Part shown: positions 7,566 to 58,062 of the stretch, piece after piece
Layout: each line of letters begins with the position of its first letter
How positions within the stretch are numbered: the stretch's first letter is position 1
NCBI RefSeq assembly: GCF_044647545.1
Contig: NZ_CP172818.1
Reading direction: 5' to 3' (one strand)
DNA length: 64,000 bases
Source of the DNA: Escherichia coli
GTDB taxonomy: Bacteria > Pseudomonadota > Gammaproteobacteria > Enterobacterales > Enterobacteriaceae
Translations under genes and position numbers: made by a program
Notes under the pieces: generated by a model
What the model saw: the letters and a program-made list of their open reading frames with translations, nothing else
Databases searched by the model: none
What the model was told of the DNA's origin: nothing

Positions 7566-8762
7566 TCAGGCGATAACGCCCAGTTGTTTACCAATACGCG
7601 TGAATGCTTCTACTGCACGCGTAATTTGCTCAGGGGTATGCGCCGCAGACATCTGGGTACGAATACGCGCCTGACCTTTCGGAACGACCGGATAGAAGAA
7701 ACCGGTGACGTAAATCCCCTCTTTTTGCAGCTCACGAGCAAATTTCTGCGCTACTACCGCATCGCCAAGCATGACCGGAATAATGGCGTGATCGGCTCCC
7801 GCCAGGGTAAAGCCCGCCGCCGACATTTGCTCACGGAACTGACGCGCGTTCGCCCACAGACGGTCACGCAGCTCGCTACCCGCTTCAACCATCTCCAGCA
7901 CTTTGATGGAAGCGGCAACAATGGCCGGTGCCAGCGAGTTGGAGAACAGGTACGGACGAGAACGCTGGCGCAGCCACTCAACCACTTCTTTGCGCGCCGC
8001 GGTATAACCACCAGAAGCCCCGCCCAATGCTTTACCCAACGTACCGGTAATGATGTCTACACGCCCCATCACATCGCAGTATTCATGGGAACCACGACCG
8101 TTTTCACCGACAAAACCGACCGCGTGGGAGTCGTCTACCATCACCAGGGCATCGTATTTATCTGCCAGATCGCAAACGCCCTTCAGATTGGCAATCACGC
8201 CGTCCATCGAGAACACACCATCGGTGGCAATCAGCACATGACGCGCACCGGCTTCACGCGCTTCTTTCAGACGAGCTTCCAGCTCCTGCATATCGTTGTT
8301 GGCATAGCGATAGCGTTTAGCTTTACACAGACGCACACCATCAATAATAGACGCGTGGTTCAGTGCGTCGGAGATAATGGCGTCTTCCGCGCCCAACAGC
8401 GTTTCAAACAGGCCACCGTTAGCATCAAAGCAGGAAGAGTAGAGAATCGCATCTTCCATCCCCAGGAAGGCCGCCAGTTTTTGTTCAAGCTCTTTATGAC
8501 TGTCCTGAGTGCCGCAAATAAAACGCACCGAAGCCATGCCGAAACCGTGAGAATCCATTCCCGCCTTTGCCGCCGCAATCAGATCCGGATGATTCGCCAG
8601 TCCGAGATAGTTATTGGCACAAAAGTTAATGACGTGGCTTCCATCAGCCACAGTGATATCTGCTTGCTGCGCAGACGTAATAATGCGCTCTTCTTTAAAC
8701 AACCCTTCCGCCCGTGCGGTTTCCAGATCGTTGGTTAACTGCTGATAACATTCTCCACGCAT
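7566..8762 (-). CDS. kbl: 2-amino-3-ketobutyrate CoA ligase (glycine C-acetyltransferase)
   Basis: 398 aa ORF, PLP-dependent aminotransferase class II; immediately upstream of tdh. Confidence 0.95.
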
Positions 8763-23156: not shown

Positions 23157-23168
23157 CACGCTACCGCC
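23157..23168 (-). promoter_or_regulatory. ops element (RfaH recruitment site) within the JUMPstart leader of the waaQ operon
   Basis: Minus-strand sequence GGCGGTAGCGTG matches the ops consensus GGCGGTAGnnTG, located ~50 nt upstream of the waaQ start inside a ~410 bp untranslated leader. Confidence 0.75.
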
Positions 23169-23519
23169 CCAGGCTCAACAGCTACCTGAATACTGATACC
23201 GCACTGATATTGACGCGCTAGTGTATCACTTCTTTCGCGGCAATCCGACCCGAATGATTTTTAAGCACATTGTTGATTTTCAATAAAGAAATCAATCAAA
23301 TAAAATCATTAGCAACCATATTCTTTTACTGTTGCTCTGCGATTCCTTCCTGCACGTACTGCAGAAATCAATGAATCGCATAAAAATACAAAAAAAGTAT
23401 AGATGTTCAGCAAGAATTGGCGGGTAAATTGCTATTTAAGTCAAAAACGGGAAAAGTAATGGTAAAGCCACAGCTAAATACATAGAATCCCCAGCACATC
23501 CATAAGTCAGCTATTTACT

Positions 23520-39492: not shown

Positions 39493-39498
39493 TGTTTT

Positions 39499-40188
39499 AT
39501 GAACCCAACACGTTATGCACGTATCTGCGAAATGCTCGCCAGGCGGCAGCCTGATCTGACCGTCTGCATGGAGCAGGTCCACAAACCTCATAACGTTTCT
39601 GCGATTATTCGTACCGCAGATGCCGTTGGTGTACATGAAGTTCATGCTGTCTGGCCTGGCAGTCGGATGCGCACCATGGCTTCGGCAGCTGCGGGTAGTA
39701 ACAGCTGGGTACAGGTGAAAACGCACCGCACCATTGGCGATGCCGTCGCTCATCTGAAAGGCCAGGGCATGCAGATTCTGGCAACCCATCTTTCTGATAA
39801 CGCTGTCGATTTCCGCGAAATTGATTACACTCGCCCGACCTGTATTTTGATGGGACAGGAGAAAACAGGCATCACGCAGGAAGCGTTGGCCCTGGCGGAT
39901 CGGGACATCATCATTCCGATGATTGGCATGGTGCAATCGCTGAATGTTTCCGTTGCCTCAGCCCTCATTCTTTACGAAGCCCAGCGCCAGCGGCAAAATG
40001 CGGGCATGTACCTGCGTGAAAACAGCATGTTGCCGGAAGCAGAGCAACAACGCCTGTTGTTTGAAGGCGGCTATCCGGTGCTGGCGAAAGTCGCAAAACG
40101 CAAAGGCCTGCCTTACCCCCACGTCAATCAGCAGGGCGAAATTGAAGCTGATGCCGACTGGTGGGCTACCATGCAGGCTGCAGGATAA
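39499..40188 (+). CDS. trmH: tRNA (Gm18) 2'-O-methyltransferase
   Basis: 229 aa SpoU-family ORF; synteny. Confidence 0.93.
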   Translation: MNPTRYARICEMLARRQPDLTVCMEQVHKPHNVSAIIRTADAVGVHEVHAVWPGSRMRTMASAAAGSNSWVQVKTHRTIGDAVAHLKGQGMQILATHLSDNAVDFREIDYTRPTCILMGQEKTGITQEALALADRDIIIPMIGMVQSLNVSVASALILYEAQRQRQNAGMYLRENSMLPEAEQQRLLFEGGYPVLAKVAKRKGLPYPHVNQQGEIEADADWWATMQAAG

Positions 40189-40193
40189 GTGCC

Positions 40194-42275
40194 ATGAAAG
40201 GTCGCCTGTTAGATGCTGTCCCGCTCAGTTCCCTAACGGGCGTTGGCGCAGCGCTTAGTAACAAGCTGGCGAAAATCAACCTGCATACCGTGCAGGATCT
40301 ACTCTTACACCTTCCCCTGCGCTACGAAGATCGCACCCATCTCTACCCCATCGGAGAACTACTACCGGGCGTTTATGCCACGGTGGAAGGCGAAGTGCTG
40401 AACTGCAATATCTCCTTCGGCGGTCGGCGGATGATGACCTGCCAGATCAGCGACGGTTCCGGCATTCTCACCATGCGCTTTTTCAACTTCAACGCGGCAA
40501 TGAAAAATAGCCTGGCGACGGGCCGCCGCGTGCTGGCCTATGGAGAAGCAAAGCGCGGTAAATATGGCGCGGAGATGATCCACCCGGAATACCGCGTGCA
40601 GGGCGATCTCAGTACGCCAGAGTTGCAGGAAACGCTTACGCCGGTTTATCCAACAACCGAAGGCGTAAAGCAGGCCACGCTGCGTAAATTAACCGACCAG
40701 GCGCTTGATCTGCTCGACACCTGCGCCATTGAAGAACTCCTGCCGCCGGAACTGTCACAAGGAATGATGACGCTACCGGAAGCGTTGCGCACTTTGCACC
40801 GCCCGCCGCCGACGCTACAGCTTAGCGATCTGGACACCGGCCAGCATCCGGCACAACGCCGTCTGATTCTGGAAGAACTGCTGGCGCACAACCTCAGCAT
40901 GTTAGCCTTACGTGCCGGAGCACAGCGTTTTCATGCCCAGCCACTGAGCGCCAATGACGCGCTGAAAAATAAACTCCTCGCCGCCTTACCGTTCAAGCCA
41001 ACGGGCGCACAGGCACGCGTAGCGGCGGAGATCGAGCGCGATATGGCGCTGGATGTGCCGATGATGCGCCTGGTACAGGGCGATGTAGGTTCCGGTAAAA
41101 CGCTGGTCGCCGCCCTCGCCGCGCTGCGTGCGATTGCCCACGGCAAACAGGTGGCATTGATGGCACCAACCGAATTACTCGCCGAACAGCACGCCAATAA
41201 CTTCCGTAACTGGTTTGCACCGCTCGGTATCGAAGTGGGCTGGCTCGCCGGTAGGCAGAAAGGTAAAGCGCGGCTGGCACAGCAGGAAGCCATCGCCAGC
41301 GGTCAGGTGCAGATGATTGTCGGAACACACGCCATCTTCCAGGAACAGGTGCAGTTTAACGGTCTGGCGCTGGTGATTATCGACGAACAGCATCGTTTTG
41401 GCGTGCATCAGCGTCTGGCGTTATGGGAGAAAGGCCAGCAGCAGGGCTTCCATCCGCATCAGTTGATCATGACCGCCACGCCCATCCCCCGCACGCTGGC
41501 GATGACTGCGTATGCTGATCTCGATACCTCGGTGATAGATGAGCTGCCGCCAGGCCGCACGCCAGTGACTACGGTCGCTATTCCTGATACCCGCCGTACC
41601 GACATTATTGACCGCGTGCGCCACGCCTGCATAACTGAAGGTCGTCAGGCATACTGGGTTTGTACGTTGATTGAAGAGTCGGAATTGCTGGAAGCGCAGG
41701 CGGCGGAAGCAACCTGGGAAGAGTTGAAACTGGCGTTGCCGGAACTGAACGTCGGCCTGGTACACGGGCGGATGAAACCTGCCGATAAACAGGCGGTGAT
41801 GGCGTCGTTTAAACAAGGTGAACTACACCTGCTGGTTGCCACTACCGTTATTGAAGTCGGTGTTGATGTGCCTAACGCCAGTCTGATGATTATCGAAAAC
41901 CCTGAGCGTCTGGGTCTGGCGCAGTTACACCAGCTTCGCGGGCGTGTAGGTCGTGGTGCGGTGGCTTCTCACTGCGTGCTGCTCTACAAAACGCCGCTCT
42001 CCAAAACCGCGCAAATTCGGCTGCAAGTGCTGCGCGACAGCAACGACGGTTTTGTGATTGCACAGAAAGACTTAGAGATTCGCGGCCCTGGCGAATTGTT
42101 AGGTACGCGTCAGACGGGTAATGCTGAATTTAAAGTGGCGGATTTACTGCGCGATCAGGCGATGATCCCGGAAGTTCAGCGCCTGGCGCGACATATTCAC
42201 GAACGTTACCCACAACAGGCAAAAGCCCTGATAGAACGCTGGATGCCGGAGACGGAACGTTACTCGAATGCGTAA
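40194..42275 (+). CDS. recG: ATP-dependent DNA helicase RecG
   Basis: Trimmed to MKGRLLDAVPLSSLTGVG start giving 693 aa; Walker A GDVGSGKT, DEQH box. Confidence 0.95.
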   Translation: MKGRLLDAVPLSSLTGVGAALSNKLAKINLHTVQDLLLHLPLRYEDRTHLYPIGELLPGVYATVEGEVLNCNISFGGRRMMTCQISDGSGILTMRFFNFNAAMKNSLATGRRVLAYGEAKRGKYGAEMIHPEYRVQGDLSTPELQETLTPVYPTTEGVKQATLRKLTDQALDLLDTCAIEELLPPELSQGMMTLPEALRTLHRPPPTLQLSDLDTGQHPAQRRLILEELLAHNLSMLALRAGAQRFHAQPLSANDALKNKLLAALPFKPTGAQARVAAEIERDMALDVPMMRLVQGDVGSGKTLVAALAALRAIAHGKQVALMAPTELLAEQHANNFRNWFAPLGIEVGWLAGRQKGKARLAQQEAIASGQVQMIVGTHAIFQEQVQFNGLALVIIDEQHRFGVHQRLALWEKGQQQGFHPHQLIMTATPIPRTLAMTAYADLDTSVIDELPPGRTPVTTVAIPDTRRTDIIDRVRHACITEGRQAYWVCTLIEESELLEAQAAEATWEELKLALPELNVGLVHGRMKPADKQAVMASFKQGELHLLVATTVIEVGVDVPNASLMIIENPERLGLAQLHQLRGRVGRGAVASHCVLLYKTPLSKTAQIRLQVLRDSNDGFVIAQKDLEIRGPGELLGTRQTGNAEFKVADLLRDQAMIPEVQRLARHIHERYPQQAKALIERWMPETERYSNA

Positions 42276-42304
42276 AAGGCGGCGGTGAGAAGACCGCCGC
42301 TTCA
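42274..42304. terminator. Hairpin between convergent recG and gltS (putative bidirectional terminator)
   Basis: ggcggcggt...accgccgc stem flanked by A4 on one side and T-rich sequence on the other. Confidence 0.4.
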
Positions 42305-42308
42305 TCGG

Positions 42309-43514
42309 TTAACCGGCAAAAATCGGCAACATCAAATACAGCTTAATCACCAGCGCATTGACGATATCGATAAAGAACGCACCGACCATCGGCACGACCA
42401 GGAACGCCATGTGCGACGGGCCAAAGCGTTCAGTGATCGCCTGCATGTTAGCGATTGCCGTTGGTGTCGCGCCAAGGCCAAAGCCACAGTGACCCGCAGC
42501 CAGCACTGCCGCATCGTAGTTTTTGCCCATCATGCGCCAGGTAACGAAGATGGCATACAACGCCATGAAGATGGTCTGTACCACCAGAATCGCCAGCATC
42601 GGCAGCGCCAGCGAAGCCAGCTCCCACAGTTTCAGCCCCATCAGCGCCATCGCCAGGAACAACGACAGGCTTACGTTACCCAGCACGGATACCGCTCGCT
42701 CAAAGACGCGGTAAAAGCCCATCATTGACAGACCGTTGCTCAGAATCACGCCAACAAATAGTACACAGACGAAGGTCGGTAGTTCAAAAGCAGTACCAGC
42801 CAAAAGTTGCGCAACAATTTTCCCCACCGTCAGGCAGATAGCAATCAGCGCGATAGTTTCAATCAGCACCAGCGAGGTGATCATGCGGCCCACATCCGGC
42901 TTTTCGAACGCAGTCGGAACTTCCTGGTCATCCGGAATACCGTTCGGTGTGGTGGAGTGTTTCACCAGATAGCGCGCCACCGGACCGCCAATCAAGCCGC
43001 CCAGCACCAAACCGAACGTTGCACAGGCCATCGCCACTTCTGTCGCATTGGTGAAGCCATAACGTTCAATGAACAATTTACTCCATGCAGCTCCCGTACC
43101 GTGACCGCCGGAAAGCGTAATAGAACCGGCCAACAGCCCCATCAGCGGATCAAGCCCTAACAGGCTAGCCATACCAATGCCAATGGCATTTTGCATCACC
43201 AACAGGCCAACAACCACAATCAAGAAGATGCCAACCACACGCCCACCGGCACGCAAACTGGCAATGTTGGCGTTCAGGCCAATGGTGGCGAAGAAAGCCA
43301 GCATCAACGGATCGCGCAGGGACATATCAAAGTTGACTTCCCAGCCCATGCTTTTTTTCAGTATCAGCAGCGCCAGCGCCACTAATAAACCACCCGCAAC
43401 AGGTTCCGGTATGGTGTATTTCTTCAAAAAGGAGACGGAATGGACCAACTTGCGCCCGAGCAGCAACGTCAGCGTTGCGGCAACAAGCGTTGCTAAAGTA
43501 TCGAGATGAAACAT
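42309..43514 (-). CDS. gltS: Sodium/glutamate symporter
   Basis: 401 aa polytopic membrane ORF; synteny. Confidence 0.93.
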   Translation of the reverse strand: MFHLDTLATLVAATLTLLLGRKLVHSVSFLKKYTIPEPVAGGLLVALALLILKKSMGWEVNFDMSLRDPLMLAFFATIGLNANIASLRAGGRVVGIFLIVVVGLLVMQNAIGIGMASLLGLDPLMGLLAGSITLSGGHGTGAAWSKLFIERYGFTNATEVAMACATFGLVLGGLIGGPVARYLVKHSTTPNGIPDDQEVPTAFEKPDVGRMITSLVLIETIALIAICLTVGKIVAQLLAGTAFELPTFVCVLFVGVILSNGLSMMGFYRVFERAVSVLGNVSLSLFLAMALMGLKLWELASLALPMLAILVVQTIFMALYAIFVTWRMMGKNYDAAVLAAGHCGFGLGATPTAIANMQAITERFGPSHMAFLVVPMVGAFFIDIVNALVIKLYLMLPIFAG

Positions 43515-43793
43515 AGTTACTCCTTTGTGTCCGCATCACTCTTTCATACTCGTCATACTTCATCGCGCATTTGCAGTAAGGCGAAATATGACGAGTATCG
43601 AGTCATGCTTTCCTGGTTCGAATTCTTCGCTGAAAATAGAAAAATGGCATGGATTTTAAGCAGAAAACAACTAAAAGTTATATAAAAAAGTACATTTATC
43701 TCATTTAAATATTTAGATGAGGATGTGGCAAACGTTTGCTTTTCTCTTTCGGTCAGCTAAAATGCCCGCTTTGCTACCACGGGATTGTTTTCG

Positions 43794-45185
43794 ATGTCTG
43801 TTTCCACCCTCGAGTCAGAAAATGCGCAACCGGTTGCGCAGACTCAAAACAGCGAACTGATTTACCGTCTTGAAGATCGTCCGCCGCTTCCTCAAACCCT
43901 GTTTGCCGCCTGTCAGCATTTGCTGGCGATGTTCGTTGCGGTGATCACGCCAGCGCTATTAATCTGCCAGGCGCTGGGTTTACCGGCACAAGACACGCAA
44001 CACATTATTAGTATGTCGCTGTTTGCCTCCGGTGTGGCATCGATTATTCAAATTAAGGCCTGGGGTCCGGTTGGCTCCGGGTTGTTGTCTATTCAGGGCA
44101 CCAGCTTCAACTTTGTTGCTCCGCTGATTATGGGCGGCACAGCGCTGAAGACCGGTGGTGCTGATGTTCCTACCATGATGGCAGCTTTGTTCGGCACGTT
44201 GATGCTGGCAAGTTGTACCGAGATGGTGATCTCCCGCGTTCTGCATCTGGCGCGCCGCATTATTACGCCGCTGGTTTCTGGCGTTGTGGTGATGATTATC
44301 GGCCTGTCGCTAATTCAGGTTGGGCTGACCTCCATTGGCGGCGGTTACGCAGCCATGAGCGATAACACCTTCGGCGCACCGAAAAATCTGCTGCTGGCAG
44401 GCGTGGTCTTAGCCTTAATTATCCTGCTTAACCGTCAACGTAACCCTTACTTACGCGTGGCCTCACTGGTGATTGCGATGGCGGCCGGATATGCGCTGGC
44501 GTGGTTTATGGGCATGTTGCCAGAAAGCAACGAACCGATGACACAAGAACTGATTATGGTGCCAACGCCGCTCTATTACGGTCTTGGCATTGAATGGAGT
44601 CTGCTGCTGCCGCTGATGCTGGTCTTTATGATCACTTCGCTGGAAACCATTGGCGATATCACGGCGACCTCTGACGTTTCCGAACAGCCAGTGTCCGGTC
44701 CGCTGTACATGAAACGCCTGAAAGGCGGCGTACTGGCAAACGGCCTGAACTCGTTTGTCTCGGCGGTATTTAATACCTTCCCGAACTCCTGCTTCGGGCA
44801 GAACAACGGGGTGATCCAGTTAACCGGTGTTGCCAGCCGCTATGTCGGTTTTGTCGTCGCGCTGATGTTGATCGTGCTGGGTCTGTTCCCGGCAGTGAGC
44901 GGTTTTGTACAACACATTCCAGAACCGGTTCTGGGCGGCGCAACGCTTGTAATGTTTGGCACCATCGCCGCCTCCGGTGTGCGTATCGTTTCTCGTGAGC
45001 CGCTGAACCGCCGGGCGATTCTGATTATCGCGCTGTCGCTGGCGGTCGGTCTGGGCGTGTCTCAGCAGCCGCTGATTTTGCAGTTTGCCCCTGAATGGCT
45101 GAAAAACCTACTCTCCTCCGGGATTGCCGCGGGCGGTATTACTGCCATCGTGCTGAATCTGATTTTCCCACCAGAAAAACAGTAA
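43794..45185 (+). CDS. xanP: Xanthine permease (NCS2 family)
   Basis: Trimmed to [12 protein letters not shown] start giving 463 aa; NCS2 transporter. Confidence 0.9.
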
Positions 45186-45305
45186 TTCACTGGCGGCGGT
45201 AAGATAATTACCGCCGCAGTCTCACCTCTTTCACCATTCCCGCCTTGAGGATTGCGCGTAAATCGTGCATAACTCCCTTATGTGCATTTCACGGGATGGA
45301 AGACC

Positions 45306-47006
45306 ATGAAATTTATTGGGAAGCTGCTTCTCTACATTTTCATCGCTCTGTTAGTGGTGATCGCTAGCCTCTATTTTCTTCTGCAAACCCGCTGGGGAGC
45401 AGAACATATCAGCGCATGGGTTTCCGAGAATAGCGACTATCATCTGGCCTTCGGTGCGATGGATCACCGTTTTTCCGCGCCATCTCATATCGTGCTGGAG
45501 AACGTCACGTTTGGCCGTGATGGCCAGCCCGCGACCCTGGTAGCAAAAAGTGTCGACATTGCGCTAAGCAGTCGGCAACTGACCGAACCACGCCATGTCG
45601 ATACCATCCTGCTGGAAAACGGGACGCTGAATCTCACCGACCAGACCGCGCCGCTACCGTTCAAAGCCGATCGTCTGCAACTGCGTGATATGGCGTTTAA
45701 TAGCCCGAATAGCGAATGGAAACTGAGCGCGCAGCGGGTAAATGGCGGCGTGGTTCCGTGGTCACCAGAAGCCGGTAAAGTGCTGGGTACGAAGGCGCAG
45801 ATTCAGTTTAGTGCCGGATCGCTTTCGCTCAATGATGTTCCTGCCACCAATGTACTGATTGAAGGCAGTATTGATAACGATCGCGTTACGCTGACTAACC
45901 TGGGTGCCGACATCGCCCGCGGGACATTAACCGGAAACGCGCAGCGTAACGCCGACGGCAGCTGGCAAGTGGAAAATCTGCGGCTGGCGGATATCCGTCT
46001 ACAAAGCGAAAAATCGCTAACCGACTTCTTTGCGCCATTACGCTCTGTCCCGTCGTTGCAGATTGGTCGCCTGGAAGTCATCGACGCTCGTTTGCAAGGT
46101 CCGGACTGGGCGGTGACCGACCTCGATCTCAGCTTGCGCAACATGACCTTCAGTAAAGATGACTGGCAGACACAGGAAGGTAAACTGTCGATGAACGCCA
46201 GCGAGTTTATTTATGGCTCGCTGCATTTATTTGATCCGATTATAAACGCGGAATTTTCCCCGCAGGGCGTAGCACTGCGCCAGTTCACCAGCCGCTGGGA
46301 AGGGGGCATGGTCAGAACGTCAGGGAACTGGTTGCGTGACGGGAAAATGTTGATCCTTGATGATGCGGCAATTGCCGGACTGGAATATACCTTGCCAAAA
46401 AACTGGCAACAGTTGTGGATGGAAACGACACCCGGTTGGTTAAACAACCTGCAACTGAAGAGATTTAGCGCCAGCCGCAATCTGATCATTGATATCGACC
46501 CTGACTTCCCGTGGCAGCTCACCGCGCTCGATGGTTACGGTGCCAACCTGACGCTGGTTACCGATCATAAATGGGGCGTCTGGAGTGGTTCGGCGAATCT
46601 GAATGCCGCCGCCGCAACGTTTAATCGTGTTGATGTCCGTCGTCCGTCGCTGGCGCTGACCGCCAACAGCAGCACGGTGAATATCAGCGAACTGAGTGCA
46701 TTTACTGAAAAAGGCATTCTGGAAGCCACCGCCAGTGTTTCACAAACGCCACAACGTCAGACCCATATCAGCCTGAATGGACGCGGTGTGCCGGTGAATA
46801 TTTTGCAACAGTGGGGATGGCCTGAATTACCGTTGACTGGCGACGGCAATATTCAGCTTACTGCCAGTGGCGATATTCAGGCCAATGTCCCGCTGAAACC
46901 TACGGTTAGCGGGCAATTGCATGCCGTGAACGCCGCAAAGCAGCAAGTGACTCAAACCATGAATGCGGGCGTAGTTTCCAGTGGTGAAGTTACGTCGACG
47001 GAGTAG
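45306..47006 (+). CDS. yicH: AsmA-family protein YicH
   Basis: ORF 45282..47006 begins with GTG; first ATG is at 45306 (MKFIGKLLLYIFIALLVV, N-terminal TM anchor); start is uncertain. Confidence 0.8.
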   Translation: MKFIGKLLLYIFIALLVVIASLYFLLQTRWGAEHISAWVSENSDYHLAFGAMDHRFSAPSHIVLENVTFGRDGQPATLVAKSVDIALSSRQLTEPRHVDTILLENGTLNLTDQTAPLPFKADRLQLRDMAFNSPNSEWKLSAQRVNGGVVPWSPEAGKVLGTKAQIQFSAGSLSLNDVPATNVLIEGSIDNDRVTLTNLGADIARGTLTGNAQRNADGSWQVENLRLADIRLQSEKSLTDFFAPLRSVPSLQIGRLEVIDARLQGPDWAVTDLDLSLRNMTFSKDDWQTQEGKLSMNASEFIYGSLHLFDPIINAEFSPQGVALRQFTSRWEGGMVRTSGNWLRDGKMLILDDAAIAGLEYTLPKNWQQLWMETTPGWLNNLQLKRFSASRNLIIDIDPDFPWQLTALDGYGANLTLVTDHKWGVWSGSANLNAAAATFNRVDVRRPSLALTANSSTVNISELSAFTEKGILEATASVSQTPQRQTHISLNGRGVPVNILQQWGWPELPLTGDGNIQLTASGDIQANVPLKPTVSGQLHAVNAAKQQVTQTMNAGVVSSGEVTSTE

Positions 47007-47315
47007 GTGCAGTAAACATCAATCTCTTCACATTCTGCTCCCAGCAAATGATCAAGATGCAGCAAATCAGCAATATTCTCCGCGCTTAACATCACACCCG
47101 CGCCAGCACGCTTCTCAACATTTATTCTCCATTGCCCCAGCCATTGCTCAAGTAAACGTAAATCACGTTGAATGGTTTTTTCCGAAACATTTAAATAGCC
47201 GCAATCGTAACAATAGTCGTATATTCCCTTCGAGGTAAAAGGAATCGTAATAATCTGTTTTGTCGCGAGGTAATCATTTGCATTTTTACCCTTATCACAG
47301 ATTAAGAAGCCCTAT
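46953..47315 (-). other. Possible gene remnant: open frame without an ATG start containing a DeoR-like helix-turn-helix motif
   Basis: Minus-strand frame reads ...CGYLNVSEKTIQRDLRLLEQWLG... (47141..47197), resembling the VSxxTIRRDLxxLE motif of DeoR-family regulators; frame overlaps the antisense 3' end of yicH and has no in-frame start that would give an ORF of 60 aa or more. Confidence 0.2.
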
Positions 47316-47577
47316 GAGGAAGAGCTTCAGTTGCCATCTCTGAGGGTAAATATAAAGCAGAATAATTTCACAACAATACTCAAAATATGTCCGTAACCCG
47401 GACAGTGATAAAACAAAGCAAGGCGGTTAAGGGATATTTTTCAGCACAGATCACATTTTCGTGATGAATAATCGTGATCATGCTCGCAAATACGATGGAA
47501 GAAATATTTATTACCAGATGTGAGATTATTTACCGGACACGACACAAAACCATTCGTATCCGGCATTCTTCAATAGA

Positions 47578-49896
47578 TTACAACGTAATTGTCAGCGCAT
47601 TCCCTTGAGGCGTCACCACCAGCCCCAGCTCACTTTCAGCCTGCGAACCGCCTTGCAGACCATTTACTTTCACAACATTGCGCAAGCACAGCGTCCAGTT
47701 CTTCGCCACGCCCGCACCATTCACAGTAATTGTGTTGCCAGTACGCGCCGCTTTCAGGGTGAAAAGAACGGAACCATCGGCAGCGGGCACTTCACAGATG
47801 GCTTCATGCCCGTCTTGCAGATTAAAGAGCTGGAATGCCGTGCCTTCGTGCCACGCGTAATCGGGACGTTGCTCGTTGTTGCCCAGCGCCAGTAGGGTGT
47901 TATCACGCACATAAACGGGTAGACTCAGGAAGCCGTGCTGCTGTTTATGCCAGCGACTACCATCGAGTTCATCGTTGTGCCACAGGTGTGTCCAGCGACC
48001 TTCCGGCAAGTAGAACTGCACATCGCCCGCTTCAGTGAACACCGGAGCAACCATCACGTTATCGCCTAACATGTATTGACGGTCAAGGTAATCACAAGCC
48101 GGATCGTCCGGGAACTCCATCATCATGGCCCGCATCATCGGCGTACCCCGGGCGTTTGCACGTGCAGCTTCACGATACAGATACGGCATCATGCGGCATT
48201 TCAGTTGCGTGAAGAAGCGCACCACATCACAGGACTCATCATCATAGGCCCACGGCACACGATAAGATTTGCTGCCGTGTAAACGGCTATGGCTGGAGAG
48301 CAAACCAAACGCGCACCAGCGTTTGTAAACGTGCGCCGGAGCGGTATTCTCAAAGCCGCCGATATCGTGGCTCCAGAAGCCAAAACCAGAAAGGCCAATA
48401 GACAAACCACCGCGCAGGCTTTCCGCCATTGATTCGTAGTTAGCGTAACAGTCGCCACCCCAATGTACCGGGAATTTCTGCGCACCGACGGAGGCCGAGC
48501 GGGCAAACAAGACGGCTTCTTCCTCGCCAACGGTTTCCTTGAGCACGTTCCACACCAGTTCGTTGTAGATGTACGCATAATGGTTATGCATTTTCTGCGG
48601 ATCGGAACCATCAAACCATTGAACATCGGTTGGAATACGTTCGCCAAAGTCGGTCTTAAAGCAATCAACGCCCATCGCGACCAGACCTTTCAGTTTGTCG
48701 GCGTACCATTTGCAGGCATCCGGATTGGTAAAGTCATAAATCGCCAGACCTGGCTGCCATTTATCCCACTGCCACAGCGAACCGTCCGGGCGTTTGAGTA
48801 AATAACCTTTCTCTTGTAACTCTTTAAAGACAGGGGATTTTTGCCCGATATAGGGGTTAATCCAGACGCAGATTTTTAGCCCTTTCGCTTTCAGGCGGCG
48901 GATCATCCCTTCCGGGTCCGGGAAAGTCAGCGGGTCCCACTCAAAATCGCACCACTGGAAGGCTTTCATCCAGAAACAGTCAAAGTGGAAAACATGCAGC
49001 GGCAGATTGCGTTCCGCCATACCATCGATAAAGCTGTTTACCGTCGCTTCGTCGTAGTTGGTGGTAAATGAAGTGGTTAGCCACAGGCCGAAGGACCACG
49101 CGGGCGGCAGCGCCGGACGACCAGTAAAACGGGTATAACTATCAAGTACCGCTTTCGGCGTCGGGCCGTCGATAACAAAGTATTCGAGATATTCACTCTC
49201 AACGCTGAACTGCACTTTGGAGACTTTCTCCGATCCCACTTCAAAAGAGACGCATTGAGGATGATTGACCAGTACCCCATAACCACGGTTAGTCATATAG
49301 AACGGAATATTTTTATACGCCTGTTCAGTACTTGTGCCGCCGTCCCGGTTCCAGGTCTCTACCGTCTGGCCATTGCGCACCAGGGCAGTAAAGCGCTCTC
49401 CCAGACCGTAAACTGTTTCGCCAACGCCAAGATCCAGCCGCTCAAACATATAATTTCGTTGATTATTCGTGTCCTGCACGTAGCCATTATTTTTCACCTG
49501 ACTACCGGTAATACGTTCGCCGTTGCGCAGAAAATCCAGTGACCAGAACTCACCTTTGCTGACACGCGCGCTTAAGTTGCCACTTTTAAACTCAGCGTAA
49601 CGTTCTGTGTTTTCGATTGTGACCTTCACGTCCTGCAAAATATTGAGCGGATAATGAGGACCGTTATTCAGCGCCCCCTGAAAATGCTCAATCCGTACAC
49701 CGACAATACCTTCCTGTGGGGAGAAAAAGCGCAGCGTAAATAAAGGCGTATCAAGCTGCCAGGTACGTTCACGCACATCACGAGGGGCAGCATAGACCAC
49801 CATTTCATTACCCTGCTCTTCAACCTCGAACACCTGAAGCGGGTGAATCAAATTGAGGCCAGGTTGAATCAACCAGTTTCCGTCGCTAATTTTCAT
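47578..49896 (-). CDS. yicI: Alpha-xylosidase (GH31)
   Basis: 772 aa ORF, GH31 catalytic region (WIDMNE-like KTDFGE); downstream of yicJ. Confidence 0.93.
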
Positions 49897-49905
49897 TGCC
49901 GTTCC

Positions 49906-51288
49906 TTAGTTCTGCACTTCTTGAGAGGTGAATTGTTGCTGGCAACGGCGTTTGCCCTGGGCCAGCTGTTCCATAACGGTTTTCAGATTGTGCGTCGTGA
50001 GCGAGTAGTAGCGTTTAGCGATAATCGCGCTCAGCAAGTAACAGATCGCCGGAACAATCGTGAATAGCGCAATAATGATGCTAATCGTGGCGCTGTTCTG
50101 CGCTTTTTCTGCCGCATCATATCCGCCATAAGCCAGCATCCAGCCGATAAGAGCGCCGCCGAAGGCCAACCCCAGTTTGAGCACAAACAGCGTGCCAGCA
50201 AAACTGATCCCGGTCAGGCGTTTACCATTGCACCACTCGCCGTAATCGACGGTATCGGACATCATTACCCACTGGATAGGTGTCACCAGTTGATGCAACA
50301 CACCAATCACGAAGATGAAGACAAACATGGTGATGCTGGCCTGCATAGGAACAAAGAACATCGCGAGGCTAATCACTGCCAGCAGGGCGTTCGTCCACCA
50401 GAAGATAGTGACTTTACATTTCCAGTCGGTCAGCGGTTTCGCCAGTGCGGAACCAATCAGGTTACCCACGCAATAAGTGGTAAGAAAAGCGACAAACACT
50501 TCCGGCGTACCCAAAATCCATGTGACGTAATACATCATCGCCCCGCCGCGTACGCATACCGCCAGAATATTGAAAATGGTTAGTAAACCGACAATACGCC
50601 ACTGGTCGTTTTGCCAGATATCACGTAAATCTTCCCTCATAGACGTCGTTGTAGGTGGTGCTTCAACGCGTTCTTTAGTGGTGAAGAAACAAAATGCCAG
50701 CATCATGAATGCCACCACGGAAAGGACCGCGATACCGCCCTGGAAACCGAGTGGTTTATTATCACCACCAATTAAATTAACCAGCGGCATCATCAGAACA
50801 GTAGAGAGCATGCCTCCCGCGGTCGCCAGCACAAAACGCCAGGATTGCAGCGAGATACGCTGAGTCGGGTCATTGGTGATTACACCACCCAATGCGCAGT
50901 AAGGGATATTGACGATGGTATAAAGTAAGGTAAGTAGGGTGTAAGTAATTGCTGCATAGATCATTTTGCCGTTCATACTGAGATCTGGCGTGCTATAGGC
51001 CAGTACACAGACGATCCCGAATGGCAGTGCGCCAAACAGTACCCACGGACGAAATTTACCCCAGCGAGAGCGCGTTCGATCGGCCAACAACCCCATGCAA
51101 GGATCGGAAATCGCATCCAGTGCACGAGCGACCAAAAACATGGTTCCGACAAATCCGGCAGGAATGCCAAAAATATCGGTATAAAAGAACATCATATATA
51201 ACATTACGTTATCGAAAATAATGTGGCTGGCGGCGTCTCCCATGCCATAACCAATTTTCTCTTTAACGGACAACACTTCACTCTTCAT
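49906..51288 (-). CDS. yicJ: Glycoside-pentoside-hexuronide family transporter YicJ
   Basis: ORF 49906..51345 trimmed to MKSEVLSVKEKIGYGMGD start giving 460 aa; GPH/MFS transporter. Confidence 0.9.
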   Translation of the reverse strand: MKSEVLSVKEKIGYGMGDAASHIIFDNVMLYMMFFYTDIFGIPAGFVGTMFLVARALDAISDPCMGLLADRTRSRWGKFRPWVLFGALPFGIVCVLAYSTPDLSMNGKMIYAAITYTLLTLLYTIVNIPYCALGGVITNDPTQRISLQSWRFVLATAGGMLSTVLMMPLVNLIGGDNKPLGFQGGIAVLSVVAFMMLAFCFFTTKERVEAPPTTTSMREDLRDIWQNDQWRIVGLLTIFNILAVCVRGGAMMYYVTWILGTPEVFVAFLTTYCVGNLIGSALAKPLTDWKCKVTIFWWTNALLAVISLAMFFVPMQASITMFVFIFVIGVLHQLVTPIQWVMMSDTVDYGEWCNGKRLTGISFAGTLFVLKLGLAFGGALIGWMLAYGGYDAAEKAQNSATISIIIALFTIVPAICYLLSAIIAKRYYSLTTHNLKTVMEQLAQGKRRCQQQFTSQEVQN

Positions 51289-51580
51289 CTGCTTTTCCTT
51301 GATGCTATAGGGGTGCTGAGACCGATAACGCATTTTGTAAACCATCCCTGCGAGAGCGAATATTCCGATATCTGGTTATTAATTTATGATTCTTGTTTTA
51401 TGTGATCGTGGTAGCGTAAATTACGCTCATATATCATTGTAAAATATGGGTTTTATATGAATTATAATGCTTTCGTGATAATACGCTGCGTGTATTAGGC
51501 GGAAAAAACTGATCTGGGGGATGTAGAAACTCAAGGAAGTAGCTATAATGCGCCCCGCCTCCATGTAGCAATCGAGGCGC

Positions 51581-51675
51581 GGAAGATCGTCGTCTCCGGT
51601 GAGGCGGCTGGACTTCAAATCCAGTTGGGGCCGCCAGCGGTCCCGGGCAGGTTCGACTCCTGTGATCTTCCGCCA
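51581..51675 (+). tRNA. selC: tRNA-Sec (selenocysteine, anticodon UCA)
   Basis: 95 nt GGAAGATCGTCGTCTCCGGTGAGGCGGCTGGACTTCAAATCCAGTTGGGGCCGCCAGCGGTCCCGGGCAGGTTCGACTCCTGTGATCTTCCGCCA; 8-bp acceptor stem, long variable arm, UCA anticodon. Confidence 0.97.
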
Positions 51676-52313
51676 ATTTGCCTCTTCTGACGTTCTCCAA
51701 CCCCTTGTAATACTGTCAATCCAGATATTTTCTACTGCTCAATATTCAATCGGCTTCAGGAATACCTGATCAAAAGTTTTGTGATGGACGATGAGCGACT
51801 GAAGAATCCGCCTGTCGGTTCTTCTGTCCTCGAACGCATCCGCGATATTCGCGCCAGCATGCGCCGTGTTTATTTGCAGGTGATTTGCCCCCCTGCTGAC
51901 TCTCAGCCAACTGTATCGCCATTAAGGTGAAGATGTTGTTTTACACGCCCCAGAACACCCTTTTTTTATACGACGATTCTATTCCTTTAACCGCTGGCGA
52001 AAAAAACTGACCTGTAAACTTCACCAATAATCAGACTGCCATCAAGATTAATTTGTTCATTTAATATATCAAATAAATTTGTTTTATTTTTACTATCAAA
52101 AATAGCTCATTGTCTTACTATAATTAATATATAAATTCGGTGATTAACTCTTAACATGCTTTTGCTAATAATCTCAATTGCTGGCCCTATAATATTGCGC
52201 TAGCATTGCTTTCTGGTTGTATCAGCGATACTCAAAAAATCTTAATACAATACTCATTCGACTGGTACTTATTTGTAACTCAGTTATATTTTGTCGCCCG
52301 GTGATTCAGAAGA

Positions 52314-53498
52314 ATGCAAAAAACGGCTACCACTCCATCAAAAATACTTGATCTCACTGCCGCGGCATTTTTACTTGTCGCCTTTCTGACGGGTATTGCG
52401 GGCGCTCTCCAGACTCCCACCCTAAGTATATTCCTCGCAGATGAACTGAAAGCCCGTCCTATAATGGTAGGTTTTTTCTTCACCGGTAGCGCTATTATGG
52501 GAATTCTGGTCAGTCAATTTCTGGCAAGGCACTCCGATAAACAAGGCGACCGTAAATTACTGATCCTGCTATGTTGCTTATTTGGAGTGTTGGCCTGCAC
52601 TCTTTTTGCGTGGAATCGCAACTACTTCATTCTCCTCTCTACGGGCGTACTTCTGAGTAGTTTTGCTTCCACTGCAAACCCGCAAATGTTCGCCCTCGCC
52701 CGTGAACACGCCGACAGAACAGGCCGTGAGACGGTCATGTTCAGTACATTTTTACGTGCTCAGATCTCGCTTGCCTGGGTTATCGGGCCACCGCTCGCTT
52801 ATGAGCTGGCAATGGGATTTAGTTTTAAAGTGATGTATCTCACCGCAGCCATCGCATTTGTTGTTTGCGGGCTGATAGTCTGGTTGTTTTTGCCATCAAT
52901 ACAAAGAAATATTCCTGTCGTTACCCAACCCGTAGAAATTTTACCCTCCATCCATAGAAAGCGGGATACACGGCTACTTTTTGTGGTCTGTTCAATGATG
53001 TGGGCGGCGAATAATCTCTACATGATAAATATGCCGCTATTTATTATTGATGAACTGCATCTAACCGATAAACTGGCTGGAGAAATGATTGGTATTGCTG
53101 CCGGTCTGGAAATTCCGATGATGTTAATCGCAGGCTATTACATGAAACGTATTGGCAAGCGACTATTAATGCTCATTGCTATCGTGAGTGGTATGTGTTT
53201 TTACGCCAGCGTACTCATGGCGACGACTCCGGCAATTGAGCTGGAATTGCAAATTCTAAATGCCATTTTCCTTGGTATTCTCTGTGGTATCGGCATGCTT
53301 TATTTTCAGGATCTGATGCCTGAAAAAATAGGCTCTGCGACAACGTTATATGCAAATACCTCACGCGTCGGCTGGATTATCGCCGGCTCTGTTGACGGAA
53401 TTATGGTTGAAATCTGGAGCTACCACGCGTTGTTCTGGCTGGCGATAGGGATGTTGGGTATTGCGATGATTTGCCTGCTGTTTATTAAAGATATTTAG
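52314..53498 (+). CDS. setC: Sugar efflux transporter C (MFS)
   Basis: 394 aa MFS ORF; first gene after selC as in the K-12 arrangement. Confidence 0.9.
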   Translation: MQKTATTPSKILDLTAAAFLLVAFLTGIAGALQTPTLSIFLADELKARPIMVGFFFTGSAIMGILVSQFLARHSDKQGDRKLLILLCCLFGVLACTLFAWNRNYFILLSTGVLLSSFASTANPQMFALAREHADRTGRETVMFSTFLRAQISLAWVIGPPLAYELAMGFSFKVMYLTAAIAFVVCGLIVWLFLPSIQRNIPVVTQPVEILPSIHRKRDTRLLFVVCSMMWAANNLYMINMPLFIIDELHLTDKLAGEMIGIAAGLEIPMMLIAGYYMKRIGKRLLMLIAIVSGMCFYASVLMATTPAIELELQILNAIFLGILCGIGMLYFQDLMPEKIGSATTLYANTSRVGWIIAGSVDGIMVEIWSYHALFWLAIGMLGIAMICLLFIKDI

Positions 53499-53608
53499 CT
53501 CACCAGTCTGGGCTAAGAAAAATCGGCGTGGCGCAAACAGAGCCATCCTCGCCATTTTTGCTATCATGCCTGCATACATAAACGACAAAACAGTATGCAG
53601 AGGGAAAA

Positions 53609-54532
53609 ATGGGTTCCACCAGAAAGGGGATGCTGAACGTTCTGATTGCCGCCGTGTTGTGGGGAAGTTCAGGGGTCTGCGCGCAATACATCATGGAGCA
53701 AAGCCAGATGTCGTCGCAGTTTTTGACTATGACGCGTTTGATATTCGCCGGTTTGATTCTGCTGACGCTGTCATTTGTTCATGGCGATAAAATCTTTTCT
53801 ATTATTAACAATCACAAAGATGCCATTAGTCTGCTGATTTTTTCCGTGGTTGGCGCGCTAACCGTACAGCTCACTTTTTTGCTAACCATCGAAAAATCGA
53901 ACGCAGCCACGGCAACGGTGCTGCAATTCCTCTCACCGACGATTATCGTCGCCTGGTTCTCACTGGTGCGTAAATCCCGCCCGGGCATTCTGGTTTTTTG
54001 CGCTATTTTGACATCGCTGGTCGGGACTTTTTTATTGGTGACACACGGTAATCCGACGTCATTATCGATCTCTCCTGCCGCGTTATTCTGGGGAATTGCC
54101 TCGGCATTTGCTGCGGCATTCTATACCACCTATCCCTCAACGCTGATTGCCCGCTATGGCACGTTACCGGTCGTCGGCTGGAGTATGCTCATTGGTGGTC
54201 TGATCCTGCTGCCATTTTATGCCAGACAAGGGACAAATTTTGTGGTTAATGGCAGTTTGATTCTGGCGTTTTTTTATTTGGTGGTCATTGGTACGTCCCT
54301 GACATTTAGTCTGTACCTGAAAGGAGCACAATTAATTGGCGGTCCAAAAGCCAGCATTTTAAGCTGTGCAGAACCATTAAGTAGCGCGCTGCTCTCTTTG
54401 CTGTTACTGGGGATCACATTCACATTACCGGACTGGCTGGGAACGCTGCTGATTCTGTCATCAGTGATTTTGATTTCAGTGGATTCCCGTCGCCGCGCCA
54501 GAAAAATAAATCGTCCGGCGCGGGATGAGTGA
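53609..54532 (+). CDS. yicL: EamA/DMT family inner membrane transporter YicL
   Basis: 307 aa ORF with two EamA-like repeats. Confidence 0.88.
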
Positions 54533-54535
54533 GAA

Positions 54536-55354
54536 TTACCAGCCAGGCACCGCGCCACCGTTAAAGATGGTTTCTGCCGCTTTAGCGACTTCGGATGATT
54601 GATAAGATTGCAGAAATTCCTTCACGTTTTCTGCATTCTTATTATCTTCCCGTGCTACCAGAATGTTCACATACGGCGAATTTTTATCTTCAATAAATAC
54701 GCTGTCGTGCACCGGAGAAAGTCCGGTCTGCTGAATGTAAGTGGTGCTGATAATCGCCACATCAACTTTGGGATCATCCAGTACGCGCGGGAGCTGCGCC
54801 CCCTCGAGTTCCATAATCTGCAAATGACGAGGATTATCGGTTATATCCAGCGCGGTAGGTAATAACCCTTTTCCCTCTTTCAGAATAATTAGCTTCTCTT
54901 TTTGCAACAGTAAAAGCGCGCGACCAAGGTTGGTCGGGTCGTTGGGGATCGCCACTGTCGCGCCTTCTTTTATTTGCGCCACGGTTTTGATTTTTTTGGA
55001 ATAACCCGCCATAGGGAAGACAAACGTATTTCCCACCGCTACCAGTTTATAACCATGCGCCTGATTATCTTGTTCAAGAAAGGGCCGATGCTGGAAGACA
55101 TTCGCATCAAGCTCGCCATGATTTGTCGCATCGTTCGGTAGCAACGAACCGCTAAATCCTACCAGTTCAACATCGAGGCCATATTTCTCTTTTGCCACCT
55201 TTTTAGCGACTTCCGCGACATCTTGTTCTGCGCCATTTATAACGCCAACTTTAATGTGTTTTGCATCGCTGCTACTCTGGTCGCAACCTGCCAGCAGAAT
55301 TCCTGCCAGCAATAATGCGGCCCCCGCCCGTAGATGATGTGTTGTCAGTTTCAT
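54536..55354 (-). CDS. nlpA: Lipoprotein 28 (methionine-binding NlpA/MetQ family)
   Basis: 272 aa ORF with lipobox LLAGC in the signal peptide. Confidence 0.92.
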   Translation of the reverse strand: MKLTTHHLRAGAALLLAGILLAGCDQSSSDAKHIKVGVINGAEQDVAEVAKKVAKEKYGLDVELVGFSGSLLPNDATNHGELDANVFQHRPFLEQDNQAHGYKLVAVGNTFVFPMAGYSKKIKTVAQIKEGATVAIPNDPTNLGRALLLLQKEKLIILKEGKGLLPTALDITDNPRHLQIMELEGAQLPRVLDDPKVDVAIISTTYIQQTGLSPVHDSVFIEDKNSPYVNILVAREDNKNAENVKEFLQSYQSSEVAKAAETIFNGGAVPGW

Positions 55355-55562
55355 TTTTTATCCTTTTTTTAATCATTAACTGACTATAATGGCAAGAACA
55401 CTACGATTTAAAAAACGAAAAGCTATCGAATAGAAGAAAAAGGTATAAAAAACTGGCACTTCTTACTGACCACGCAAACACCTTTCGTACAGCATGATGA
55501 GAGCGGTAAAAGCAAACTACACTTATGCTTCATTCGATGCACATTTGCAGAAGGTTGCCGCT

Positions 55563-55856
55563 ATGAAGCCAACGATGCTACTCATGATTACCGTATTCCT
55601 GACTTTTCCAGCCATTTCTCAGGCCGAGTCGCCATTCAGCTCGCTACAGTCGGCAAAAGAGAAAACCACGGTATTGCAAGATTTACGTAAAATTTGCACG
55701 CCACAGGCGTCATTATCAGACGAAGCGTGGGAAAAATTAATGTTGTCTGATGAGAGTAACAAACAACATATCCGCGAAGCTATTGTGGCGATGGAGCGTA
55801 ATAATCAGAATAACTACTGGGAAGCGCTGGGTAAGGTGGAATGCCCGGATATGTGA
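55563..55856 (+). CDS. yicS: Small secreted protein YicS
   Basis: ORF trimmed to MKPTMLLMITVFLTFPAISQA (signal peptide) giving 97 aa. Confidence 0.8.
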   Translation: MKPTMLLMITVFLTFPAISQAESPFSSLQSAKEKTTVLQDLRKICTPQASLSDEAWEKLMLSDESNKQHIREAIVAMERNNQNNYWEALGKVECPDM

Positions 55857-55894
55857 ACCGCTACAACTACTGACCAACGCTTCTTTACCTGATA

Positions 55895-57085
55895 TCAGGA
55901 TTTCTTCATTTTCACCTTTGCGGTGACCAATAACGCCGTCAGCAACATCAATGTGCCGGACAACATCAACGGCGAAGTCAGACCAATATTATCCAGCGCA
56001 TAACCGCCGATTGCCGCGCCACAGGTATTAGCAAGCTGAATAACCGCCACCTGAATAGACCCGGCTTTTTCTGCCTGATCGGCCAGTGAGCGGGTGATCC
56101 ACGTTGACCAGCCGACAGGAACCAATGCAAAAGTTAGCCCCCAGATAATCGCCACGCCGGTAGCAACGATTTTATCGCTTCCCCACAACGTCAGCACCAA
56201 CGCACTCACAGCCAGTATTAACGGCGCGCCTGCTAAGGCCAGTTTTACCGAACGTTTAAGAATGAACGACGAAAGCGACGTACCAATAAAGCTGGCGATA
56301 CCAAAACTCAACAGCACCAGCGTTAAGCCATCCACGCCGAATCCCGCCAGGTTCATATACACCGGGCGAATATACGTGAAGAAAGCAAACTGCCCGGCGA
56401 AAGACATGAAGATGGCGATCATCCCTGCCATCACACCCGGACGTTGTAATAAGCGGAAAGTATTTTGTTTCTGATGCGAGGGTTCGCCTGGCAGCGAAGG
56501 CAATGATTTGATAATCCAGAAAATACACAGCACGCCCATCACCGCCGCCGCATTAAAGACATTGCGCCAACCGATAAGCTCGCCTAAAAAACTGCCCAAC
56601 GGTGCGGCAATCACCAGCGCAATAGAAACCGCGCCGAAGATCACCGACAGCGCCTTCGGCACCGTACGCGGCGGTACCAGACGCATGGTCAGCGACGCCG
56701 ACATCGCCCAGAACCCACCCAGCGCCAGCCCCAGACAGGCACGACCGATTAAAAGCAAACTGAATGAGTTAGCAAAGGAAACCAGCAAGCAGGAGAGCGT
56801 CAGCAAAACGGCAAACAAAATAACAACATAGCGGCGGTCAGTGGCCTGAATGGTCTGGGTAATAAACAAACTGGCAAACATTGCCACAAAGGCGGTCACG
56901 GTCACCGATTGCCCGGCAACCCCTTCCGAAATGCCTAAATCCTGGGCCATTGGCGTCAACAAACTGACGGGCAAAAACTCAACGATAATCAGACAGGCGA
57001 CGCAAAACGCCACCGAGAAAACGGCTGACCAGTTCGGTCGGGTGATGGCATCCGCGCCGCGGTTTTCGGCAATAAATTCACTCAT
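55895..57085 (-). CDS. nepI: Purine ribonucleoside efflux pump NepI (MFS)
   Basis: ORF 55895..57133 trimmed to [19 protein letters not shown] start giving 396 aa. Confidence 0.9.
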
Positions 57086-57349
57086 GGTGTTACCCGTGGC
57101 ATGTTTCAGGGGAAAAGCCGACCACTTTAACATTGAAATGTGTGACGCATTTAACGTTTTTGCAACTTTTACGGTGTTGTGGGAAAAGTTCGAGGCTGCT
57201 CGAAGAAATAAAAATCATAGGGCAAGGTGATATGCATTTTCGCAATGGGGTTGGGAATAAGGGATAAAGTATTCATTGTGATATACTTTAATAACAGGAT
57301 CTCAACGATATACGCGTGTTTAAAACCAAATATTTTGCAAGGGAAGCCA

Positions 57350-57990
57350 GGTCTCAGCAAAAAAGAAAAAAAGTTGCCGGTTTAGAAACGGAACAAGGTA
57401 AAGCTGATGTACTTGGTGGTGGCGTTTTTAAAAAGCGCCTTCACCGAAATCGTGAGCGTGCAATTATTCTGCAAAAGGGGAAAAAAATTGTTTTTACACT
57501 TTTTTATATAAAAAAAAGGATATGTCAAAAATAAATAGCAAGAAACGGCTTGGTTTCCGTAAACTCCAAAACATTTTCCCCTCCCTACCAAAACCCAAAC
57601 AAAAAAAAAGATTAAAACAAAAAAACAAACAGAAATCCCCTAGACCCGAAAAAAAAAAATAAAAAACCCCCGCTTTTGGGCATTCCCAACCCCGCGGCCC
57701 GGGTTTCCCCCCCCCATGCTTTTTCTCCCCAAAAAAAACGTACTTTTACAAAACCCCCCCCACCAGCACGCAAAAACTACAACCCGGTGAAAAAAAAAAA
57801 ACACGGGAAAAAAAAAAAAGGAAGCCACCCCCCTTCGCCCCCATCCCAAAACCAGCGTTTCAACAGCACAAAAAAAGGAAAAGGGGCGCAAACCCCCCAG
57901 GGGTTCTTTAAAAATCCCCAGCATGGTGGAAAAAAAAGGGGGGGGGGGGGGGGAGTAAAAAAAAAAGAAAAAAGTCATACCAGCCCCAAT
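57350..57990. repeat. Low-complexity homopolymer-rich tract (A8-A12, C5-C8 and a G19 run); probably sequencing or assembly artifact
   Basis: Direct inspection: successive long poly-A, poly-C and poly-G runs, strand-asymmetric composition, no coherent coding frame; unlike any other intergenic region in the window. Confidence 0.6.
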
Positions 57991-58062
57991 ACCGGATGCG
58001 GCGTGAACGCCTAATCCACCCTACAGGTCAGGCGCGGTCTGTAGGCTGATAAGACGAAGCGG
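57991..58062. repeat. Degenerate REP-like (BIME) palindromic element
   Basis: accggatgcggcgtgaacgcctaatccaccctacaggtcaggcgcggtctgtaggctgataagacg resembles the canonical REP gccggatgcggcgtgaacgccttatccggcctaca but with several mismatches. Confidence 0.45.

Follow-up and report, generated by a model that had tools for sequence, protein, structure and literature searches.

An empty selC attachment site followed by a rhuM pseudogene fragment in Escherichia coli

The selC hotspot and the islands that it hosts are textbook material (PMC7545054), and a selC locus raises the question of whether the site is occupied and, if it is not, what the DNA behind the tRNA gene represents. We analyzed this locus in a stretch of 64,000 nucleotides from E. 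coli (contig NZ_CP172818.1; hereafter, the window). An earlier note on this DNA had described the site as an unoccupied, K-12-like configuration in which selC is followed by AT-rich non-coding sequence and then directly by setC. Our results suggest that selC is very probably an intact, single-copy attB without an island, and that the spacer behind it is the eroded remainder of an older rhuM neighbour.

The selC gene (51581-51675, plus strand) encodes an intact tRNA-Sec with anticodon TCA (ARAGORN; Rfam RF01852), which scores 83.8 bits against a gathering score of 47 and matches the Rfam model over its positions 1-91 of 91. To its left lies yicJ (49906-51345, minus strand; Pfam MFS_2, 2.3e-90), the gene of a glycoside-pentoside-hexuronide transporter and a conserved flank that is found upstream of selC in many Enterobacterales loci. 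The next long plus-strand open reading frame after selC is setC (52314-53498, plus strand, 394 aa; MFS_1, 1.5e-40), an MFS transporter of the SetA/B/C subfamily of sugar efflux transporters (TIGR00899, 645 bits), followed by the conserved right flank composed of yicL (53609-54532, plus strand; EamA, 2.2e-42) and nlpA (54536-55354, minus strand; Lipoprotein_9, 1.1e-92). These four protein-coding genes were identified from their open reading frames, Pfam matches and syntenic RefSeq annotation. The position of selC and the order setC-yicL-nlpA are thus as previously described (ARAGORN, Rfam, open reading frames and Pfam), and the distance between selC and setC, estimated beforehand at about 640 bp, measures 638 bp.

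P4-type tyrosine integrases use the last 24 nt of the tRNA-Sec gene as the insertion point for islands such as LEE, SHI-2 and PAI I536; such an island leaves selC intact, has its integrase gene about 150-300 nt after selC and is bounded distally by a 24-nt repeat, after which the spacer follows. Indeed, selC insertions have been reported to carry a 24-bp direct repeat (Saile et al., PMC6174562). In the window, the attB core, i.e., the 24-nt 3' end of selC (51652-51675, plus strand), of which selC islands carry a second copy at their distal border, is present as a single copy. The search for a direct repeat of this end, which the earlier note had proposed for the spacer, was run across the whole 64-kb window with a 24-mer and a 17-mer, each with up to three mismatches; both were found once, and no second selC 3' end exists there, as had been claimed. 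Integrases gave the same picture. No significant integrase match was obtained in the window, the best E value of tblastn with a P4-type integrase of a selC island (that of NZ_CP032892.1, described below) being 3.5; against 51400-52400 the best match (E = 0.083) overlapped selC itself, and inside the spacer all E values were at least 11. A Pfam search of the spacer, covering its ten longest remaining stop-to-stop segments in six frames, returned no integrase domain, so that the claimed absence of an integrase gene or remnant from the spacer is upheld. In this profile search, a weak DUF776 match antisense to the rhuM fragment described below fell under the cut-off (E = 0.006) and was dismissed.

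The locus therefore presents the features of an empty attB (an intact tRNA gene, a lone 3' core, no adjacent integrase and contiguous, reference-like flanks), and the window lacks the two marks of a selC island, a P4-type integrase at selC and a distal 24-bp repeat. The site is free of any integrase-type island; at selC the source strain carries nothing of the kind of LEE, SHI-2 or a PAI I-type element. Since the 24-nt core is identical to the attR copies of occupied genomes, this attB would be expected to be still competent for integration.

The comparison with occupied genomes shows what an insertion at this site looks like. In NZ_CP032892.1, used as an occupied positive control, selC is followed about 300 nt later by the gene of a 394-aa tyrosine integrase, an island of about 38.7 kb, a 24-nt attR, a pseudo-rhuM and setC; the island terminus reads TTCGACTCCTGTGATCTTCCGCCA and continues into the spacer and setC as in the window. 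The right-hand match in occupied genomes begins at the equivalent of window positions 51652-51654, and in many genomes integrase-bearing selC islands terminate with the 24-nt selC copy before a spacer of the window type. The window shares its attachment site with the selC islands LEE, SHI-2, PAI I536, tia PAI and GIselC17584/1 (PMC7545054, PMC6174562), whereas it differs from integrase-bearing selC islands by the absence of the integrase, the direct repeat and the foreign block.

The empty arrangement is common in this species. Among 5426 complete E. coli genomes, selC, the spacer and the start of setC are contiguous as in the window in 2467 (~45%), including genomes of the K-12 type; the same spacer stands behind an attR copy, with an island inserted, in about 1160 more (3631 minus 2467), and a different, B2-type junction was found in 842. 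The K-12-type locus has the same order yicJ-selC-pseudo-rhuM-setC-yicL-nlpA, with a spacer of 636-638 bp that is about 97.5% identical, and the window is collinear with a K-12-type locus from selC to nlpA. The two nevertheless differ: the K-12-type allele has an internal stop 7 codons into the rhuM fragment, whereas the fragment of the window has no stop codon, and the window belongs to a different lineage, its stretch being 100% identical to that of strains 142 and FDAARGOS_497. The description of the site as empty and K-12-like therefore stands with regard to the integrase, the repeat and the 2467 genomes that look alike, and has to be amended in that the spacer holds a rhuM pseudogene.

The composition of the spacer already reveals its heterogeneity. 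Its GC content is 17-29% at 52000-52150, where the label AT-rich non-coding is appropriate, in contrast to 49-56% at 51750-51950, where the label fails and where a RhuM-family fragment lies at 51754-51915 (plus strand; 162 nt, 54 codons; tblastn, PF13310 and PGAP). This fragment spans residues about 118-182 of a RhuM protein of 342-345 aa with in-frame deletions of 8 and 3 codons, and is devoid of the N-terminal ~117 and the C-terminal ~160 codons; the GC-normal part of the spacer translates as LQEYLIKSFVMDDERLKNPPVGSSVLERIRDIRASMRRVYLQVICPPADSQPTV. Protein searches with the fragment returned just short relic ORFs, and full-length RhuM queries were taken from a plasmid collection; using these, tblastn yielded E = 2e-20 (Enterobacter) and 5e-20 (Salmonella), while the rest of RhuM was not detectable by tblastn in any frame of the spacer. 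The open frame at 51691-51927 (79 codons) matches PF13310 with 45.7 bits against a cut-off of 33.7, covering profile positions 50-98 of 1-252. The fragment thus passes the family threshold without being a complete RhuM coding sequence (about 340 aa). In PGAP-annotated RefSeq genomes the same stretch is recorded as 'rhuM, RhuM family protein, pseudogene, missing N- and C-terminus'. We conclude that it is a real, dead and already annotated pseudogene, and that a persistence of RhuM function in a 54-codon internal fragment is impossible.

The rhuM gene was named from the Salmonella island SPI-3, a selC-associated island that carries it (PMC3680342), and RhuM-like proteins have been proposed to be toxin domains that act with restriction-modification and PrrC-like systems (Anantharaman et al., PMC3710099). 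Full-length rhuM is a candidate phage-defence or toxin gene. SPI-3 and the window both have rhuM tied to the selC locus (PMC3680342), the two genes being at most possible orthologues; the sugR, misL, marT and mgtCB genes of SPI-3 would find no room in the 638-bp spacer of the window, where no other protein-family match was found in any frame. The Salmonella contig of our comparison has no selC, and in S. enterica subsp. diarizonae no rhuM was found within 4.3 kb of selC. At the protein level, the Salmonella RhuM and its B2 E. coli counterpart share 84.6% identity. Elsewhere, in Enterobacter hormaechei (NZ_CP077309.1, 1-4153), a full-length rhuM is surrounded by genes for a Drt3b reverse transcriptase, HicB, SymE and a GNAT protein, a defence-island context that is consistent with the PADLOC assignment of RhuM as PDC-S05.

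How the fragment came to lie behind selC can be approached from the sequences on either side of it. The first 78 nt of the spacer (51676-51753, plus strand) correspond by homology to other Escherichia to the retained 5' part of an ancestral selC-rhuM intergenic region. This leader block is 88-90% identical in E. whittamii, in Escherichia sp. E1V33 and in a divergent 'E. coli' (L022), and it runs into a rhuM start codon (MSDKRLT...) 123 nt after selC in E. whittamii and 113 nt after selC in E1V33. The alignment of the window to the leader breaks at about 51753 and resumes at rhuM codon ~118. A plausible history is thus that rhuM once began about 115-125 nt after selC on the same strand, and that a single deletion of ~390 nt, which took the last part of the leader along with ~117 N-terminal rhuM codons, fused the first 78 leader nt to codon ~118. 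The small in-frame deletions within the fragment would have come later, and whatever lay beyond codon ~182 would have disappeared or given way to setC and its upstream region. The simplest reading of these alignments is that a resident rhuM probably decayed in place and did not come in already fragmented. The remaining part of the spacer (51916-52313, plus strand) is an E. coli-specific setC upstream sequence that becomes increasingly AT-rich (GC 17-37%); it has no protein-family match in any frame and no similarity to the segment that replaces it in ST131, and by its position it is presumably the setC promoter region. In E. whittamii (123-182 nt after selC) and in E1V33 (113-154 nt), the leader is kept together with just the first 14-20 rhuM codons, which is a different erosion pattern of the same rhuM slot; E1V33 also has a 404-aa gene on the opposite strand before yicL, and its selC-yicL distance is 1.5 kb.

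The association of rhuM with selC extends beyond E. coli. Scanning one genome per species with a 37-mer of the selC 3' end recovered 94 loci, 70 of which had at least 1.5 kb of downstream sequence and were assessed. A P4-type integrase lies 147-300 nt after selC in 26 of these 70, and RhuM or its relics were found within 3.5 kb after selC in 13 of the 70 Enterobacterales species loci, always on the plus strand and in genera and species that include Morganella, Erwinia, Pantoea, Kosakonia, Franconibacter, Huaxiibacter, Citrobacter and E. albertii. In two loci, from E. albertii and M. morganii, a decayed integrase is followed by rhuM. The setC gene was not found beside selC in any other species locus scanned.

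Within E. coli, the B2 strains display a different arrangement. In ST131 and UTI89, an intact rhuM (345 aa) lies 53 nt after selC in the same orientation and is followed by a rhuM relic, a gene for a 165-aa hypothetical protein and yicL, and setC is absent from the selC-yicL interval of B2-type genomes. The full-length RhuM of ST131 matches PF13310 (393 bits) and PADLOC PDC-S05 (E = 2.8e-173). The homology between the window and ST131 ends at 51690, 15 nt past selC (98.5% identity up to there), and restarts at 53580, 29 nt before yicL (97.2%), and between these points just the rhuM fragment aligns, at 76.6%. The block that varies between E. coli lineages, as defined by this alignment, is therefore 51691-53579, containing pseudo-rhuM and setC in the window. 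Both types have rhuM on the same strand directly behind selC and the outer flanks yicJ and yicL in common, whereas rhuM is intact and setC missing in B2, as opposed to 54 rhuM codons and setC in the window. Because the breakpoints are sharp and come without repeats or an integrase, we infer that the selC-yicL interval was probably swapped as a block between lineages, via homologous recombination in the conserved flanks. In ST131 (NZ_OX637964.1), the relic behind the intact rhuM (about 7592-7758) is a second, frameshifted RhuM covering residues ~167-234; the B2 strains thus have two rhuM generations in tandem behind selC.

The rhuM alleles themselves are not simply inherited with the flanks. 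At the DNA level the fragment is 76.6% identical to the rhuM of B2, 72% to one from Salmonella and 72-85% to rhuM genes of several genera, in contrast to 97-98.5% in the flanks. The fragment is therefore far more diverged than its surroundings, showing that the B2 rhuM is not its direct parent, and its divergence from B2 above that of the flanks points to a horizontal exchange of rhuM alleles at selC. Separate acquisitions of rhuM may have occurred in the window lineage and in B2.

These observations also bear on the alternative that the site was anciently occupied, with the pseudo-rhuM and setC block (51691-53579) being a small, degraded island that has lost its integrase and distal repeat, in which case 'empty' would be a misnomer. 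Several results are in line with this possibility: the block is missing from B2, where other DNA is found between sharp breakpoints 15 nt past selC and 29 nt before yicL; no other species locus was found to have setC next to selC, and this holds for Escherichia sp. E1V33 as well; a decayed integrase precedes rhuM in the E. albertii and M. morganii loci; and ST131 presents two layers of rhuM remnants. However, no att-like repeat was detected near 53580 or elsewhere in the window, nor any integrase trace, and the 78-nt leader common to other Escherichia indicates that at least the left part of the block is ancestral rather than island-borne. Moreover, it may just as well be B2 that is derived. 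An ancient island is thus possible but rather doubtful, and we favour an empty attB followed by an older rhuM neighbour that eroded in place.

A broader and quite speculative idea, to which we attach little probability, is that the position behind the selC 3' end is a long-lived rhuM slot across Enterobacterales with an integrase-free turnover of alleles, and that the adjacency to tRNA-Sec may be functional, through co-transcription with selC or surveillance of mobile-element entry. If this were true, the window would represent one extinct state of the slot, and the selC-yicL interval would be a two-layer hotspot, with islands at the tRNA end and cassette exchange behind it.

Returning to the eroded rhuM neighbour, one may ask whether the fragment or the spacer still has a function, as a small protein, a cis-regulatory element of setC or a terminator of selC. 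The frame at 51691-51927 is open for 79 codons in the window, the fragment is kept at 94.6-100% identity among the listed alleles in about 3600 genomes, and public annotations often call it as an ORF of 46-95 aa. Nevertheless, the early in-frame stop of the K-12-type allele shows that the fragment is under no coding constraint, and four alleles vary about as much in the fragment as in the remaining spacer. In addition, tRNA-Sec was the only RNA family found in the region (Rfam scans of 51300-52500 at E ≤ 1 and, with gathering thresholds, of the whole window); the folding of 51676-51760 and 51905-51975 was no better than that of shuffled sequences (z = -0.45 and +0.69), without a convincing selC terminator; and promoter and terminator matches were at chance level, with two weak promoter-like sites at 52126-52172, a yield that shuffled sequence also reaches. 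A retained function is therefore highly improbable. Concerning repeats in this region, we observed a 19-nt direct repeat at 51498-51516 and 51996-52014 (GGCGGAAAAAACTGATCTG and GGCGAAAAAAACTGACCTG; 17 of 19 matches, reached in 0 of 200 shuffles) that flanks the selC promoter, selC and the rhuM fragment. It had the look of an old duplication, but it does not extend, is weaker in K-12-type alleles and has no further copy in the window; it is probably an A-tract effect and possibly a product of chance.

Finally, the notion that the spacer is plain intergenic DNA resembling RhuM by chance, to which a first, shorter translation scoring 33.4 bits, just below the Pfam cut-off of 33.7, could have lent itself, has a negligible probability and is refuted by the tblastn match (E = 2e-20 over 65 aligned positions) and the 45.7 bits of the complete open frame, together with the 72-85% DNA identity to rhuM of several genera and the identical PGAP call.

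Among phages and plasmids, the relatives of the spacer were just mislabelled E. coli chromosomal DNA and one Salmonella rhuM. The E. coli selC-setC spacer is found at about 97% identity in the records of the Campylobacter phages A18a/A11a (MG065686.1, MG065691.1) and in the PLSDB 'plasmids' NZ_CP141089.1, NZ_OL790696.1 and CP061233.1 (1-4.9 Mb), which suggests that these 'phage' and 'plasmid' entries are contaminated or mislabelled.

An empty selC is what the K-12 reference shows, and RefSeq already lists the rhuM pseudogene, so that both are known, ordinary and of low importance. In a non-exhaustive literature search, we did not find stated the frequency of rhuM behind selC in Enterobacterales, nor the reading of leader and fragment as decay in place, which we regard as modest comparative observations. 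In practice, "empty" tRNA sites can still hold fossils of earlier occupants. In many Enterobacterales rhuM, listed by PADLOC as a phage-defence candidate, recurs right after selC, which might merit comparative study.

Regarding the wider neighbourhood, the window is closest here to E. coli FDAARGOS_497, a human isolate, which is 99.97-100% identical over 38345-55857 and has the same empty selC. Two segments of this strain are nevertheless missing in the window: a 6.7-kb cluster of PTS fructose, BglG and aldolase genes between yicH and yicI (window junction 47016/47017), and an island of SycD/YopB/IpaD-like type III secretion translocator genes, eilA and iatC, located between yicS and nepI (window 55857-55901) just 4 kb downstream of selC. 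To the right of 55901, the identity to FDAARGOS_497 is no longer ~100% but 97.8%, and the alignment has 36 gap openings; this points to a recombination boundary or to differences between the assemblies. Among the matches listed from 5426 complete RefSeq E. coli genomes, none covers at least 80% of window 46000-58000 with more than about 96% identity, and the combination of alleles and missing islands seen in the window is unrepresented among them. Farther to the left in the window, a JUMPstart RNA (RF01707, 55.2 bits) lies at 23157-23195 on the minus strand, an element that occurs upstream of polysaccharide gene operons.
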